Shown here piece by piece: positions 18,746 to 57,022 of a stretch of DNA of 64,000 bases. A program made the position numbers and the translations under genes. The stretch spans positions 2,176,001 to 2,240,000 of the forward strand of contig OY820905.2 of assembly GCA_963555755.3 (NCBI GenBank). Reading direction: 5' to 3'. Under the pieces are notes generated by a model, which worked only from the letters and a program-made list of their open reading frames with translations, was not told where the DNA came from and searched no databases. Every line of letters begins with the position of its first letter. The first letter of the stretch is position 1. The stretch is from Nitrospirales bacterium. Its GTDB lineage: Bacteria; Nitrospirota; Nitrospiria; Nitrospirales; UBA8639.

Positions 18746-19286
18746 TACGCTACCCTTTACTTGAAAGAGTTTCCATAAAACTCAATACTCATGCCTGACC
18801 CCAATTCCTGACCCCAATTCCAATTCCTTTTGTCATTTCGACCCCAGGAGAAATCTCTTGTTCGACCACGGGCGCATGTGAAAAGGGGACAGATGTATTT
18901 TCCACGACCAAGACAGAAAATAAAAATGCCACGCAATCTCACAACTGTCGTGTCATGTCGACCCTTGGGAGCATTCTGTGGTACGGCAACGTGGGAGATT
19001 TCTCCCAGAGGTCGAAATGACATACGCTACCCTTTACTTGAAAGAGTTTGCATAAAACTCAATACTCATGCCTGACCCCAATTCCAATTCCTTTTGTCAT
19101 TTCGACCCCAGGAGAAATCTCTTGTTCGACCACGGGCGCATGTGAAAAGGGGACAGATGTATTTTCCACGACCGAGACAGAGAATAAAAGCACCACGCGA
19201 CCTCACGACTGGGGTGTCATGTCGACCCTTGGGAGCAATCTGTGATGTGGCAACGTGGGAGATTTCTCCCAGGGGTCGAAATGACA
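18746..19286. repeat. Tandem ~270-bp duplication, each unit carrying a GTCA-tagged REP doublet
   Basis: acgctaccctttacttgaaagag...tgtcatttcgaccccaggagaaatct...agatttctccca(g)ggtcgaaatgaca present twice. Confidence 0.85.
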
Positions 19287-22364: not shown

Positions 22365-22433
22365 AGATTTCTCCCAAGGGTCGAAATGACAGAAAGAAAA
22401 CCTGGATCCCCGATTAAGGATGTCGAGGATGAC
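22365..22433. repeat. GTCA-tagged REP arms
   Basis: agatttctcccaagggtcgaaatgaca followed by ctggatccccgattaaggatgtcgaggatgac. Confidence 0.65.
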
Positions 22434-23269: not shown

Positions 23270-24057
23270 TGCCCCTGCAGACGAGGCCCTTTTGTTTCGG
23301 CCAAAAAGGGACTGTTCAAAAAGTTTCCGAGCAAGACCGCAGGCAGCAAAAAGCCCAAGGCGTACAGAAAGTAGGTTGAGGGCTTTGAACAACGAGAACG
23401 CAGCTAGGGAACTTTCAACAGTCCCTTAAACCTAGAAACGGCAGTTGGGCACAAAAAAGACGTGCAAGATATTGGTGTGCATGGTGAAATACAAAAAGTC
23501 GTGGTCACCTCGGTGGTGATGAGACATTTTTGTATTTTGCCAGGTGCGCCAAGAGCTTGCGCGGACTTTTGTGATCCAACTGCCGTTTCTAGGTTAAAGG
23601 ACCCAAAACCATTCTCGCTTATGCGCGGCCCTACAGAGAATGATCAAACCGTTCGTCAGCAAGGCCGCAGGCGCTTTGGCGCGCGCAGCGTACGCGTTAG
23701 TAGGTGAGCACGGCAAAGGGCCGAGAACGCCGCTGACGGACGGTTTGATCATTCTCTTCCGGGTCCCTCCGCCTCCGTACCGAATAAGATGGCTCGGGAA
23801 CTCGCTACGCTCAAACAGCTCTCGCCGAGAGGCCGATTCGGTACGGAGGCTCCGCCGGGCCCAACGCAAAGACCCAAGTTCGATGCAGAAAATGAAAAAA
23901 CAACCTTACATAACAATTGATTGTCATTTCGAGCAGAGCGAGAAATCTCCCCCCAGTGTCGAACGAGAGATTTCTCCCAAAGGTCGAAATGACAAAGGAG
24001 GGGCTGAAGTGACAGAGGGGAAGACCTGGATTCCTGATTATCAATGTCGGGAATGAC
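23270..24057. repeat. Nested cluster of palindromic repeats (E-type 23308-23425, family C 23430-23594, E-type 23635-23757, host repeat, REP doublet ~23922-23994)
   Basis: Visible TIR pairs; host repeat partly repeated in reverse at ~39710-39818. Confidence 0.75.
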
Positions 24058-25725: not shown

Positions 25726-27746
25726 GAATATATCTCAATATGCAGATTGGCATACTCATCAACACGCGCGTGATCATTGATACCTAGCACGATTGTCGTG
25801 TCGTCTTGGATGATCACGGCTGGCCCGTCTATCTCATTGCCTGGGCGCAAGCGCTCTCGTGAAAAATGCGGGGCCAGGACAGGACCATCAGGTAAGACCA
25901 GCCGGTGTGTTCCAGTCACAGCATGAGATGCGTTTGCAGAAGCTTCAATTGGTAAGCGCGAGAGCGAAGGCGGTTTGGTTCGACCACTACCCTGCACCCG
26001 TAGGTTGACAATCTCAATCGGTGCATCTTCCTGCCGATACCCATATCGTTGCTGATGCTGTGCATCAAAGCTGGCCCGATACGTTTTCGAAAAGGGAACG
26101 GTTAATTCATACGATTGCCCAACATACCGAACATCGAGTTCGCTGAGTATTTCGACATCATCAGGCTTCACGCCTTGGGCCTTCAGGCCAGACCTGCTCT
26201 TCTCGATCATGGGTGCAAAGTTTCCTTGCAACTCTTCATACGAGGGCTCATCGGATCGCATGATCGTCTGTACGGCATCCACTCGAACATGGGCCGTCAA
26301 CATTCCATAGGCTGATAATGTTGACGCGGAGGAAGGAATGAGTACTCGACGAATTCCCATGCCCCTGGCCAAATCACAGGCATGGCCGCCGCCGGCCCCA
26401 CCGAACGACACCAACGCATAATCCCGGGGGTCATGTCCTCGCTCCACGGAAATCACGCGGATCGCGCGCTCCATCTGGGCATTGACAACCTGAACGATTC
26501 CCAAAACCGCGGCTTCCACCTCTGAACATTCGGCTTGTGGTTGAAGGTCAAGCTGTTCAGCCAACACCGCCATGGCCTTGGACGATGCTTCAATATCAAA
26601 TGGTAGCTGCCCTCCCAAGAGACCCGATGCCGGCAAGCGACCTAACAGCACATTCGCATCGGTGACCGTGGGAATCAGTCCCCCTCGGCCATAGCAGACT
26701 GGCCCGGGATCGGCTCCGGCACTCTCCGGGCCCACCCGAAGGGCACCCCCTTTATCCACTCGCACCAACGAACCACCACCCGCGCCGACGGTATGAATAT
26801 CAATCACGGGAACGCGAATGGGGAATCCGCCCACTTCTGCTTCCGACGTGGTTTCAATTTCACCATCGACAAGAGAGACGTCCGTGGAGGTTCCACCCAT
26901 GTCAAATGTGATGAAGCGGTCACACCCAGCCAGCTTGGCCACATGCACGGCCCCGACCACGCCTCCTGCAGGGCCAGAGAGAATCGAGTGCACCCCTTTT
27001 TGGCGTGCCTGTGTCGCCTGAATCCGTCCGCCATTGGATTGCATGATATAAAACGTGTCGGCACCCAACGTATCTTCAAGCTCGCCGAGGTATTGATCAA
27101 GCACCGGCGACACATAGGCATTCACGACCGTAGTAGACGCACGTTCGTATTCACGGAATTCGGGAAGCAATTCCTGGGAGGCCGTCACAAAAAATCCCTC
27201 CTGCCGAAAACATTGGGCCACTTCCTGCTCATGCGCAGGATTCGTGAAGGAAAAAAGAAAACTGATGGCCACCGACTGAACGTGTTGCGTATGGAGGAAA
27301 TCCACGAGGGCAGGAATCTCGTTGACATCAAGCGAGATAAGCACGTGGCCTTGATAATCAATCCGCTCCGGGATTTCGAAACACAGATCTGAGGAGACCA
27401 GGGGTTCGACTCCCCCACTGAACCAATCATAGAGGGCTCGTCGATTTTGACGGCCAAGGCGCAAGATATCTCGAAAGCCTTTCGTCGTGACGAAGGCAGT
27501 CCTGGCACCCTTTCGTTCTAACAGGGCATTGGTGGCGACGGTGGAACCATGAATGATGGTTCGTGGAAGTTCACTAGAAAGACGCTCTAGGCCTTGCAGC
27601 ACTGCTTTAGCCGGACTTGAAGGCGTTGAGAGAATTTTAAACGTGGATATCTGATTCGCTGTCTCGTCAAACAGGACAAAGTCGGTAAACGTTCCGCCAA
27701 TGTCAATCCCGATAAACAGTCGAGGTTGGAGGTTGCCTATAAACAT
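25722..27746 (-). CDS. Hydantoinase A/oxoprolinase family protein
   Basis: GIDIGGTFTD, HGSTVATNALLERKG, SGPAGG, DMGGTSTD, GAGGGS, FGGAGG. Confidence 0.95.
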   Translation of the reverse strand: MFIGNLQPRLFIGIDIGGTFTDFVLFDETANQISTFKILSTPSSPAKAVLQGLERLSSELPRTIIHGSTVATNALLERKGARTAFVTTKGFRDILRLGRQNRRALYDWFSGGVEPLVSSDLCFEIPERIDYQGHVLISLDVNEIPALVDFLHTQHVQSVAISFLFSFTNPAHEQEVAQCFRQEGFFVTASQELLPEFREYERASTTVVNAYVSPVLDQYLGELEDTLGADTFYIMQSNGGRIQATQARQKGVHSILSGPAGGVVGAVHVAKLAGCDRFITFDMGGTSTDVSLVDGEIETTSEAEVGGFPIRVPVIDIHTVGAGGGSLVRVDKGGALRVGPESAGADPGPVCYGRGGLIPTVTDANVLLGRLPASGLLGGQLPFDIEASSKAMAVLAEQLDLQPQAECSEVEAAVLGIVQVVNAQMERAIRVISVERGHDPRDYALVSFGGAGGGHACDLARGMGIRRVLIPSSASTLSAYGMLTAHVRVDAVQTIMRSDEPSYEELQGNFAPMIEKSRSGLKAQGVKPDDVEILSELDVRYVGQSYELTVPFSKTYRASFDAQHQQRYGYRQEDAPIEIVNLRVQGSGRTKPPSLSRLPIEASANASHAVTGTHRLVLPDGPVLAPHFSRERLRPGNEIDGPAVIIQDDTTIVLGINDHARVDEYANLHIEIYS

Positions 27747-27788
27747 GATTCGTTCTTCCTAACGAAATTTGCAGACAAGAGCAAGAAT

Positions 27789-28152
27789 TGTCATTTCGAC
27801 CCTTGGGAGAAATCTCGCCGTTCCTGCCACGCTTGGTAATGGATCCCAACCCCAACGAAGAGATTTCTCCTTCCACTCGAAATGACAGAAGGGGTCTGAC
27901 GCTCGCTCATCTCGAACAAACTAGCAAACTTGGGGTCCCTACCTTTTGTCATTTCGACCCCCCCTTTTGTCATTTCGACCCCCCCGTTGTCATTTCGACC
28001 CTTGGGAGAAATCTCGCTTTTCCTGCCACCCTTGGCAAGGCGGTCCGAGCCCAACGGAAAGATTTCTCCTTCCACTCGAAATGACAACAAAGAAAACACC
28101 ACTTTGTCCTTCCTTCCATGTCATTTCGACCCTTGGGAGAAATCTCGCCGCT
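27789..28152. repeat. GTCA-tagged REP array downstream of the GIY-YIG gene
   Basis: Doublets tgtcatttcgacccttgggagaaatctc...agatttctccttccactcgaaatgaca at 27789-27887 and 27988-28086; stuttered arms at 27947 and 27968; lone arm at 28119-28146. Confidence 0.9.
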
Positions 28153-28164
28153 TCCCTTCACAGA

Positions 28165-28458
28165 TTAGGCTTCCCAATTTTGCCTAAGATCATTCCACTT
28201 TGGGTTGATCGTTATCACTAAGGAATTCTTTTTCGATCGACGCCACTTTTTGATTTCTTTTTCCCGCGCAAGTGCAGCGTGAACATCGGTTGTCTCTTCA
28301 AAGTAGACCAATTTCTTGACGTTGTATTTTTTCGTGAATCCTTCTATGACGCCATTCTGGTGCTCCCATACACGTCGTTCCAAATTATTCGTTACCCCCA
28401 CATACATCACTCGATTATTCTGAGTGGTCATCAGATATACGAAATAGGGATGGGACAT
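28165..28458 (-). CDS. Stand-alone GIY-YIG nuclease (YhbQ-like, 97 aa)
   Basis: YFVYLM..MYVGVTNNLERRVWEH..FTKKY..LVYFE..AREKEIKKWRR..NPKWNDL. Confidence 0.93.
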   Translation of the reverse strand: MSHPYFVYLMTTQNNRVMYVGVTNNLERRVWEHQNGVIEGFTKKYNVKKLVYFEETTDVHAALAREKEIKKWRRSKKNSLVITINPKWNDLRQNWEA

Positions 28459-28481
28459 TTGTTATTTCAATCTTTCTTCGT

Positions 28482-28711
28482 TGTCATTTCGACCCTTGGG
28501 AGAAATCTCGCTTTTCCTACCACGCTTGGCAAGGCGGTCCAAGGCCAACAGAGAGATTTCTCCTTCCACTCGAAATGACAACAAAGAAAACACCCCTTTG
28601 TCCTTCCTTCCATGTCATTTCGACCCTTGGGAGAAATCTCGCCGCTCCTACCACGCTTGGTAATGGATCCCACCCCCAACGAAGAGATTTCTCCTTCCAC
28701 TCGAAATGACA
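28482..28711. repeat. GTCA-tagged REP array upstream of the GIY-YIG gene
   Basis: Doublets at 28482-28580 and 28613-28711; 28482-28646 repeats 27988-28152. Confidence 0.9.
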
Positions 28712-28751
28712 GAAGAAGAAGAAAAAAACGGTGAGCCAAAGGAAAGAGGCT

Positions 28752-30272
28752 CTACCCCTTTACGTTTCCACTTAGGGTCACCACTCGAGGCCCGCCGGGG
28801 GCATTGTCCCAGATGGTGAGTTGCGCATGGTAGGGCCTGGGTTCATCCCCAGCAAAACGAATGTGAACGGAGCAGAGTTTTCCTGTCGTGAGCGTAGTTC
28901 CCAAACAAGCCCCGTCGTTGATCGAAAACGATTGAGAATCAGGCCCTTCCAACACCACCTTCCTGATCGTAAGAGGACCTAACCCCACATTGGCAACCGT
29001 CAGGAGTTTCGCCGACGGTTCATCTCGAACGTCCTCATCAGCAAACTGGACGGCATCGGTACTGAGATTAATCGAAGGGATAGTGGCTTTGCCGCTCAGT
29101 AATATCGACACGTCATGAGAATCACTATTGGTGGTCACGACATCAGGTAAGCCATCCCCATTGAAATCCTCAACTCCGACGGAGGTCGGCGTGGCTCCCA
29201 CGGCAAAATGGCCAGCCGGCTGAAACGAGCCGTCCCCTCTCCCTAGCAAAATGGACGTGCTATTGGATGCCCGATTCGAGGCGATCAAATCCCAATGTCC
29301 ATCGCCATCGAGATCATGAATGGTTACCGCCATGGGACTAAATCCTACATCAAGTTGAGCGGGTTTAGTGTACTGCCCGGGAGCTTCTTGCAAAAGAACG
29401 TTCAAACTATCCGTAAACACACTGGCGGCAATAAGGTCAAGATTTCCGTCTCCGTCCAAATCAACCTGCATCAGGGCACTAAGCGTAAACCCGGCATCGA
29501 TGTCTTGGCTGCGTACAAACTGACCGTCTCCCTCATTGTGTAGGACGGACACGAGTCCATTCGGAGTCTGCCAACTAGGCTGGCTCCAGGTCACGGTTAA
29601 TTCAGGAAGACCATCGCCACTCAAATCGACGATTGACACACCGGTCGGAAACAACCCATGTTGATCCTGTTCTTCAAACACTTGTGCTGAGCTCAATAGT
29701 CCTTGGCCATTGTTCAACAACACTGACAGACTATACGGAGGATAATTCCCAAAGCGGCCGCTATTGGCGACCACGACATCGACATCTCCATCGCGATCCA
29801 GATCTCCCAATTTCAGAAACGTGGGTCCCTTTCCGGACGGGTAAAACATGGGATCCTGAAACAATCCATCCCCTTTTCCCAACAAGACGACAATTCCATC
29901 AGAACCCGTCTCCGCCACGATCAAATCGAGTGTGGCATCCTGGTTCAAGTCGCCTGAGGTGAGAAACATCGGACTCCGTCCCACACCAAAGGAAATGCCA
30001 GATCGAAACGTGCCATTGCCATTGCCGAATAACATCGTCACATCGTCGGAACCGTTATTTACCGTGGCCACGTCGAGCCACCCGTCGCCATTAAAATCTC
30101 CAACCGTCAAGGCCTCCGGATGTCGTCCAACATCCGCTGGAATCACGGGAGTGAGCACAAGATTTTGTGCCACGACGGGATCGGCCACAAGAATGGCTAC
30201 GCCCAACAAAAGCACTCCGCCCAGGCCTGTGCAGGGATGCCGCTTACTATTCACGTTGATTTTAGAGCCCAT
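28752..30272 (-). CDS. Secreted FG-GAP/VCBS repeat protein with C-terminal Ig-like (ASH/choice-of-anchor D-like) domain
   Basis: Signal peptide; about seven GDFNGDGxxD repeats; LTVANVGLGPLTI...CSVHIRF. Confidence 0.9.
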   Translation of the reverse strand: MGSKINVNSKRHPCTGLGGVLLLGVAILVADPVVAQNLVLTPVIPADVGRHPEALTVGDFNGDGWLDVATVNNGSDDVTMLFGNGNGTFRSGISFGVGRSPMFLTSGDLNQDATLDLIVAETGSDGIVVLLGKGDGLFQDPMFYPSGKGPTFLKLGDLDRDGDVDVVVANSGRFGNYPPYSLSVLLNNGQGLLSSAQVFEEQDQHGLFPTGVSIVDLSGDGLPELTVTWSQPSWQTPNGLVSVLHNEGDGQFVRSQDIDAGFTLSALMQVDLDGDGNLDLIAASVFTDSLNVLLQEAPGQYTKPAQLDVGFSPMAVTIHDLDGDGHWDLIASNRASNSTSILLGRGDGSFQPAGHFAVGATPTSVGVEDFNGDGLPDVVTTNSDSHDVSILLSGKATIPSINLSTDAVQFADEDVRDEPSAKLLTVANVGLGPLTIRKVVLEGPDSQSFSINDGACLGTTLTTGKLCSVHIRFAGDEPRPYHAQLTIWDNAPGGPRVVTLSGNVKG

Positions 30273-39587: not shown

Positions 39588-39818
39588 GTCATTCCCGATA
39601 TTTTTAATCGGGAATCCAGGTTTGTCCTTCTGTCATGTCGACCCCTGGGAGAAATCTGTAGTTCGGCCACCTATGAGATTTCTTGCTCTGCTCGAAATGA
39701 CAAAAGAAAAGCGTTGGGCGTGGCGGAGCCGGAGTCCAGAATCGACTTTTCGGCGAGGGCTGTTTGAGCCCTTCGACAAGACTCAGAATAGACTCCGCGA
39801 GTTCCCGAGCCATCTTGA
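39588..39818. repeat. GTCA-tagged REP arms plus host-repeat fragment
   Basis: gtcattcccgat...atcgggaatcc; tgtcatgtcgacccctgggagaaatct...gagatttct...cgaaatgaca. Confidence 0.7.
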
Positions 39819-56805: not shown

Positions 56806-57022
56806 AATGCTAAATTAATCGAAAATCGCTGCGGAGGCATTGGGTCCGTTTAGGCTCTCTAGCATTCTTACACGAATGTTTAATAAGAGAAGAACAATTA
56901 GATTTCCCAAATGTCATTTCGAGCGGAGCAAGAAATCTGACATCCAAGTGGAGATGAGTGTATTCAACAATACCCTTAACTCCTTTTTCATCAACCAAAA
57001 ACCAAAACATGGAGGTATCGCG

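Follow-up and report, generated by a model that had tools for sequence, protein, structure and literature searches.

Chenal et al. (2025, PMC11893778) describe the Ssn family (cd10448), in which each protein consists of a single GIY-YIG domain and GTC-tagged hairpins lie on either side of the gene. The SsnA protein of Neisseria meningitidis binds its repeat solely as single-stranded DNA and cuts it a few nucleotides upstream, and each of the substitutions Y6A, Y17A and E64A abolishes cutting. Three further Ssn homologues cut their own repeats, bringing the number to four in all, and SsnA lowers the integration of transforming DNA in Neisseria. The likeness to REP/IS200 (REP/RAYT) systems is raised in the same paper, where mobilisation stays a hypothesis (PMC11893778). 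A second related group comprises the CGTC/TGTC-tagged REPs, defined by Di Nocera et al. (2013, PMC3733652) and described there as apparently lacking a dedicated transposase. Our search of the literature outside subscription papers found no other Ssn paper, and figure logos in print could show the variant described below. The locus analysed here most probably encodes (at roughly 85%) an Ssn single-strand endonuclease with its cognate repeat, predicted by homology to cut single-stranded DNA immediately 5′ of the tag. The pairing of gene and repeat has thus been known since 2025, and the novelty lies in the variant, a large Ssn branch with a GA/GA hairpin that is outside the reach of the published motif search.

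The window is the whole stretch analysed, 64,000 nt from the genome of a Nitrospirales bacterium (contig OY820905.2). The ssn gene (28165-28458, minus strand) encodes a 97-aa single-domain GIY-YIG nuclease with residues Y8, Y19, R29, H33, E66 and N85 and the branch marker K76, and lies between a hydantoinase A gene on one side and an FG-GAP repeat gene on the other. PF01541 (GIY-YIG) is the sole Pfam match (E 2e-17, with 96 of the 97 residues as query), and the curated NCBIfam search gave no match above its cut-off. The structure model is confident and forms one domain (pLDDT 94.7). Its closest solved folds are GIY-YIG domains, the best being those of UPF0213, Slx1 and UvrC, with weak PDB sequence matches (E 0.007, 22-30% identity) and no Ssn structure found among the solved structures searched. 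The interval 27650-28850 gave no match to a sigma-70 promoter or a terminator. The genome holds a single intact ssn copy. Contigs of two public sequencing runs, which may be the source of the genome itself, span the gene with no difference and at a depth close to that of the flanks, and an assembly artefact is rejected as far as such contigs allow. The public-run contigs also reveal at least seven strain variants inside the gene, and five of the seven listed are synonymous.

Membership of the Ssn family is supported by two reference proteins. The N. gonorrhoeae orthologue of SsnA is a 94-aa protein from a plasmid-collection record (NZ_CP119140.1), flanked by 10 NTS copies and carrying Y6, Y17 and E64 at the published positions; it shares 41% identity with the present protein over 85 of 94 residues (E 4e-19). 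The record itself, at 2.17 Mb, is listed as a plasmid in PLSDB and has a chromosome-like size. The Azospirillum lipoferum 4B orthologue, from one of the 29 genomes that define the published motif, is 45% identical (E 3e-23), and in that genome (NC_016623.1) the suf operon holds the ssn gene with its four repeats between sufB and sufC. With the N. gonorrhoeae orthologue in place of the N. meningitidis protein, the match falls within the relaxed family threshold (tblastn E < 1e-10 over > 75% of the query), and its 41% identity lies below the 60% to SsnA used for the published flank statistics. The SsnA residues Y6, Y17 and E64 align with Y8, Y19 and E66. The locus shares with described Ssn systems a single-domain GIY-YIG protein of about 95 aa with the same tested residues. 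It also shares oriented GTC-tagged cognate hairpins of the 20-50-nt class on both sides of the gene, hundreds of dispersed and mostly intergenic copies, and repeat variants that go with protein variants. It differs in the hairpin, which has a GA/GA mismatch, a 2-bp inner stem and a triloop where the published one is fully paired, in residues K76 (W74 in SsnA) and T11-T/N12 (A9-S10), and in a well-supported branch that parts this protein from all paired-stem sequences, those of Neisseria among them.

Nine full 27-nt units surround the gene, as four doublets with tags outside plus one lone unit, and are accompanied by two half-unit stutters. Doublet A (27789-27887) consists of units 27789-27815 (+) and 27861-27887 (-) and folds as a single long hairpin. 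The stutters (27947-27987, plus strand, starting at 27947 and 27968) are each about 21 nt long, comprise a tag, a left arm and a pyrimidine run, and adjoin the tag side of doublet B (27988-28086; units 27988-28014 (+) and 28060-28086 (-)). The lone unit (28119-28145, plus strand) lies about 20 nt past the stop codon. On the other side, a degenerate half-unit (28459-28480, plus strand) forms the 5′ leader of ssn; it has no second match in the genome when up to 3 mismatches are allowed and is kept at the gene-less junction of the relative G032. Doublet C (28482-28580; units 28482-28508 (+) and 28554-28580 (-)) and doublet D (28613-28711; units 28613-28639 (+) and 28685-28711 (-)) follow. Doublets B and C each begin one copy of a 165-bp direct repeat (27988-28152 and 28482-28646, identical at 158 of 165 positions) that brackets the gene. 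None of 5000 random 300-nt segments was flanked at both ends by units less than about 100 nt away, which argues against a chance arrangement. The earlier note, made from the letters of the window, had described the four inverted doublets around the 97-aa gene, the direct repeat and the arm stutters, all of which hold, and had not listed the lone unit separately. Its GTCA-tagged arms stand in part: the repeat is tagged, but the tag is TGTC, with the A opening the stem, and each arm is a small hairpin of its own.

The 27-nt unit consists of the TGTC tag, a 5-bp stem, an invariant GA/GA, a 2-bp stem and a triloop that is often GNA. Among 59 distinct units from homologue loci, gathered with a pattern that leaves pairing open at the variable positions, the stem pairs are Watson-Crick in 54, 59 and 55 of 59 and the inner pairs in 54 and 53 of 59. 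Pairing at four of the five exceeds that in every one of 1000 shuffles; the exception is the near-invariant C-G pair (75/1000). The GA/GA is kept in 138 of 142 units near homologue genes and in 161 of 173 in this genome. Since a lone unit does not fold under standard DNA energy rules (z +1.0 and +0.4), the hairpin rests on this covariation; the whole doublet does fold (z -5.6 and -7.1). Tandem GA-AG mismatches are described as stacking in sheared form (PMC8163305), as could the two G·A pairs predicted here. The published SRM pattern has no exact match in the window or among the 207 chromosomal copies: 10 copies need one substitution, 125 two, 60 three and 12 more than three. It is matched at one of 79 homologue loci. 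The GA repeat misses the published pattern, and the system is therefore filed as an Ssn variant.

The repeat family extends well beyond the gene. In the window, gene-less copies form a cluster of five units (18832-19285), doublets at 23923-23993 and 39632-39701, and single units at 22365-22390 (minus strand) and 56912-56938 (plus strand), within 1-2 nt of where the earlier note had placed them. The whole genome holds 208 units in 99 clusters, 207 of them chromosomal, and a fixed pattern finds 171 matches on the chromosome vs none on the reversed chromosome, with T preceding GTC in 162 of the 171. Only 12 of the 207 units lie wholly inside ORFs of at least 200 aa, which make up 68% of the chromosome. 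A second, fully paired repeat family is present in the same genome in 25-63 copies by pattern, and the two kinds form mosaics: a canonical-type hairpin lies within 150 nt of 22 of the 207 units, as where the single unit at 22365 adjoins one at 22404 (mosaic 22365-22433) and the doublet at 39632 adjoins one at 39588 (mosaic 39588-39701). A broken ssn remnant of the canonical type (G000:C1:2279457-2279702, outside the window, where G000 is this genome) shares 78% identity with the Neisseria protein in its C-terminal 32 aa, and an NTS-like, fully paired unit is found about 330 nt away.

The units resemble the CGTC REPs in their CGTC/TGTC tag, in AT as the first two stem positions and in a short unpaired tail. 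As in those REPs, dimers with tags outside predominate (72 of 103 adjacent pairs, vs 23 with tags inside and 8 in tandem) and are mostly heterodimers (68 of 72). They differ in that the text of Di Nocera et al. ties no enzyme to the repeats, and in that this text gives 8-9-bp stems with 4-5-nt loops, GTAG-24 being the one family for which it notes unpaired GA (PMC3733652). The comparison covers that text, and the GA repeat may equal one of CGTC-1 to -4.

The homologue family is very large, with 4607 representatives at E 1e-10 or better, and a structure-based unit classifier was run on 191 loci, the two larger sets (79 and 80 loci) each being sampled with one query. Of the 79 nearest GTDB homologues, 72 carry units of the GA type alone, two carry both types and five carry none. 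The earlier note had proposed looking for enrichment of flanking repeats across genomes and for co-variation of repeat sequence with protein clade, and both are found. GA-type units lie within 500 nt of the gene at 74 of the 79 close homologues, at a density of 243 units in 77.6 kb near the genes vs 36 in 256.6 kb farther away, and a stricter fixed pattern still places a unit at 68 of the 79, on both sides at 44. By comparison, the 80 metagenomic homologues of the Azospirillum Ssn protein comprise 50 loci with paired units, 30 with none and none with GA units, and the best 30 host-family loci, the present gene counted, divide into 13 GA, 14 paired and 3 without units, with no mixed locus. The outgroup, made up of two GIY-YIG homologues that are more distant, is without repeats.

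Repeat type tracks the protein branch on both trees that were built, a quick one of all 191 rows and a careful one of 71 of the 191. Each has a single change between GA and paired types (SH-aLRT 98 with 191 rows; 98/91 with 71 rows). The roots differ, the quick tree placing GA within paired and the careful tree the reverse. Because the change is a single tree event, it does not amount to statistical proof of co-evolution. The GA rows cover 19 named phyla. The sharpest protein marker is K76, present in 100% of 85 GA rows, vs W in 98% of the 66 paired rows. Residues 11 and 12 likewise differ between the groups, and the catalytic Y8, Y19 and E66 are at least 98% conserved in both. Among the assayed Ssn proteins, as far as the accessible text of Chenal et al. 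names them, we found no member of the GA branch (PMC11893778).

Within the host family, at least 10 units are present in 13 of the 14 genomes with a GA-branch gene vs 9 of the 47 others, gene status in these 61 genomes being taken from the fetched loci, with second hits per genome outside the classification. Six of those nine (G030, G038, G041, G043, G057 and G060) are 98-100% complete and hold 14-59 units with no GA-branch gene by the query used, which argues that the repeats persist where that query finds no such gene. The GC content of ssn is 42%, vs 52% for the window, and its best homologues come from unrelated phyla (up to 71% identity, vs 65% for the best inside the host family), and these observations point to the gene having reached the genome horizontally.

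The orthologous site varies among relatives. It is a short spacer in G023 and an unrelated one in G010, both without a unit; G028 has one doublet with the same starting junction; and the congeneric G032 (flanks 98% and 91%) has a match to the 22-nt leader, five stutters and two doublets but no gene. An empty-site allele, for which the earlier note had suggested searching, thus exists. The same note had supposed that the gene could be lost through the 165-bp direct repeat, which the G032 allele does not bear out, as it is bounded by a short tag-half repeat. The leader match covers 19 of 22 positions, or 30 of 33 with the adjoining tag. In-silico deletions by the two routes score alike overall (101.0 and 102.5), and the short tag-half junction is preferred because it alone explains both that the leader is kept and that doublet A is missing. 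At the left junction, G028 and the present genome both have a complete first unit, so the alignments are most simply explained by a G032 deletion running from the tag half at 27788 to its degenerate copy at 28459; the G032 assembly is 64% complete in 390 contigs, so that collapse at the site is possible. The array also varies around the gene, since an environmental contig (run X8) passes from the left flank by way of a half-unit to the lone unit and the end of the gene, so that doublets A and B are missing, with 41 nt on its short side. Joints that skip the gene in public-run contigs have sides of less than 30 nt and were left out.

The earlier note knew of no demonstrated mechanism for such a nuclease, a statement overtaken by the site-specific single-strand cleavage shown beside repeats of this kind for four Ssn homologues (PMC11893778). 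The GA-branch nuclease would likely bind each TGTC-tagged unit as a single-stranded hairpin, with two stacked G·A pairs predicted, and cut a few bases 5′ of the tag; by analogy with the Neisseria and Wolbachia Ssn proteins, cutting would be confined to single-stranded DNA, Mg-dependent and strand-specific. The alleles suggest that the gene may have arrived together with its repeats, that the array would expand, homogenise and delete by recombination or slippage between units, and that the gene could thus be lost while repeats stay.

A further proposal, which would add to this reading rather than replace it, is that the nuclease is a dedicated mobilising enzyme, the counterpart of RAYT, with a cut by the tag starting copying or recombination that seeds units and with unit-gene-unit as the autonomous form. 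We regard this as possible but doubtful. Within the host family, presence of the gene is associated with more abundant repeats, and within the genus the dispersed subtype is that flanking the resident gene: this genome has the TTTCGA type, as do 45 of the 47 units in G032, and the TCCTGA/TTCTGA type, which flanks the ssn genes of G023 and G010, accounts for 24 of 25 units in the former and 12 of 13 in the latter. The orthologous site shows a graded series, from no unit (G023, G010) through one doublet (G028) and two (G032) to four with the gene here. Stutters occur solely on the tag side, the side on which SsnA cuts (18 of 207 units vs 0 of 207 on the other side), which fits a cut near the tag and also simple slippage in the pyrimidine run. 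None of the 17 Y1 transposase matches in the genome lies within 2 kb of a unit, and Di Nocera et al. report no dedicated transposase for the CGTC repeats (PMC3733652). Against the proposal, the genome has just one intact gene copy, the related genomes are not independent, and Chenal et al. offer mobilisation as hypothesis only (PMC11893778). No precise pair of empty and filled sites and no target duplication was found among the comparisons listed, which took in 20 unit-holding G032 contigs and the 40 longest of about 400 G028 contigs and revealed sites common to both genomes, breaks in synteny or mosaics that could not be aligned. GIY-YIG enzymes act on DNA by hydrolysis and are not known to rejoin it, nor is strand-transfer chemistry known for this fold, which also counts against mobilisation. 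The combined picture is equally tentative: an Ssn branch spread over at least 19 phyla may read a sheared tandem G·A hairpin in single-stranded DNA through a Trp-to-Lys specificity switch and itself mobilise TGTC/CGTC REPs, its cut seeding copies and leaving stutters, as a GIY-YIG counterpart of the REPtron.

It is much less probable that the repeats are RNA or long-hairpin elements, such as transcript stabilisers or recombination substrates, that are spread by the host with the nuclease as a passenger cassette. The energy model, in which doublets fold strongly and single units do not, would suit this explanation, as would the scarcity of units within long ORFs and the finding that HigBA, DUF433/DUF5615 and Uma2 genes are likewise bracketed by 208-300-nt direct repeats with units. 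A passenger, however, would neither hold one repeat type across the 19 named phyla of the homologues nor change it precisely at a single branch of the protein tree, and binding and cutting of the cognate repeat have been shown for four homologues (PMC11893778). That a RAYT or IS200/IS605 TnpA elsewhere is the true partner, with the GIY-YIG protein serving in general repair (as a UPF0213/Slx1-like nuclease or a fragment of UvrC), is very improbable and is rejected: the 17 Y1_Tnp matches and the solved-structure resemblances might suggest it, but the nearest such match is 2077 nt from a unit vs 21 nt for ssn, the tag is TGTC and not GTAG, the PDB identities of 22-30% compare with 41-45% to Ssn proteins, and the distant GIY-YIG outgroup has no repeats.

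The earlier note had seen here a candidate RAYT/REP-like system with a different enzyme; nuclease and repeats do form a cognate pair, but the pair is not new and matches Ssn/SRM. The likeness to REPtron/RAYT-REPIN systems lies in an enzyme gene within inverted doublets of a tagged palindrome that is also found genome-wide, and in mosaic, BIME-like arrays. The difference lies in the enzyme, GIY-YIG rather than an HUH Y1 transposase, and in the tag, TGTC rather than the GTAG of REPtron REPs. Three of the Y1_Tnp matches (G000:C1:490105, 2166780 and 2173444) share score and frame length (329 aa), which suggests recent copies of one element.

A large Ssn branch unseen by the published motif search and paired with a different hairpin offers a candidate orthogonal site-specific nuclease for single-stranded DNA. 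The contrast of GA/GA with paired stems, and of Lys76 with Trp, provides a handle on how a single domain of 97 aa reads sequence and structure together, and relatives with zero, one, two or four doublets at one site, with or without the gene, provide material on whether Ssn proteins spread CGTC-type REPs.

Several other loci in the genome show related layouts. A HigB-like toxin gene with an HTH antitoxin gene (G000:C1:885300-887200) lies between 300-nt direct repeats that are 97% identical and carry GA-type doublets, a layout like that of ssn. A DUF433/DUF5615 pair (G000:C1:831500-833200) lies between direct repeats of at least 208 nt at 97% that hold units, the duplication there extending over about 440 nt and taking in coding sequence, and a Uma2-family gene (G000:C1:1268900-1270800) lies between 259-nt direct repeats (89%) that hold units. 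For six G032 clusters (L221, L222, L227, L229, L231 and L235), the flanks map to different places in this genome, through rearrangement or misassembly. Two other palindromic elements of about 145-160 nt (G000:C1:4408504-4407917 and G000:C1:4458427-4458017) are present here and absent at the corresponding sites of G032, with sharp ends, and are candidate MITE families unrelated to the GA units.
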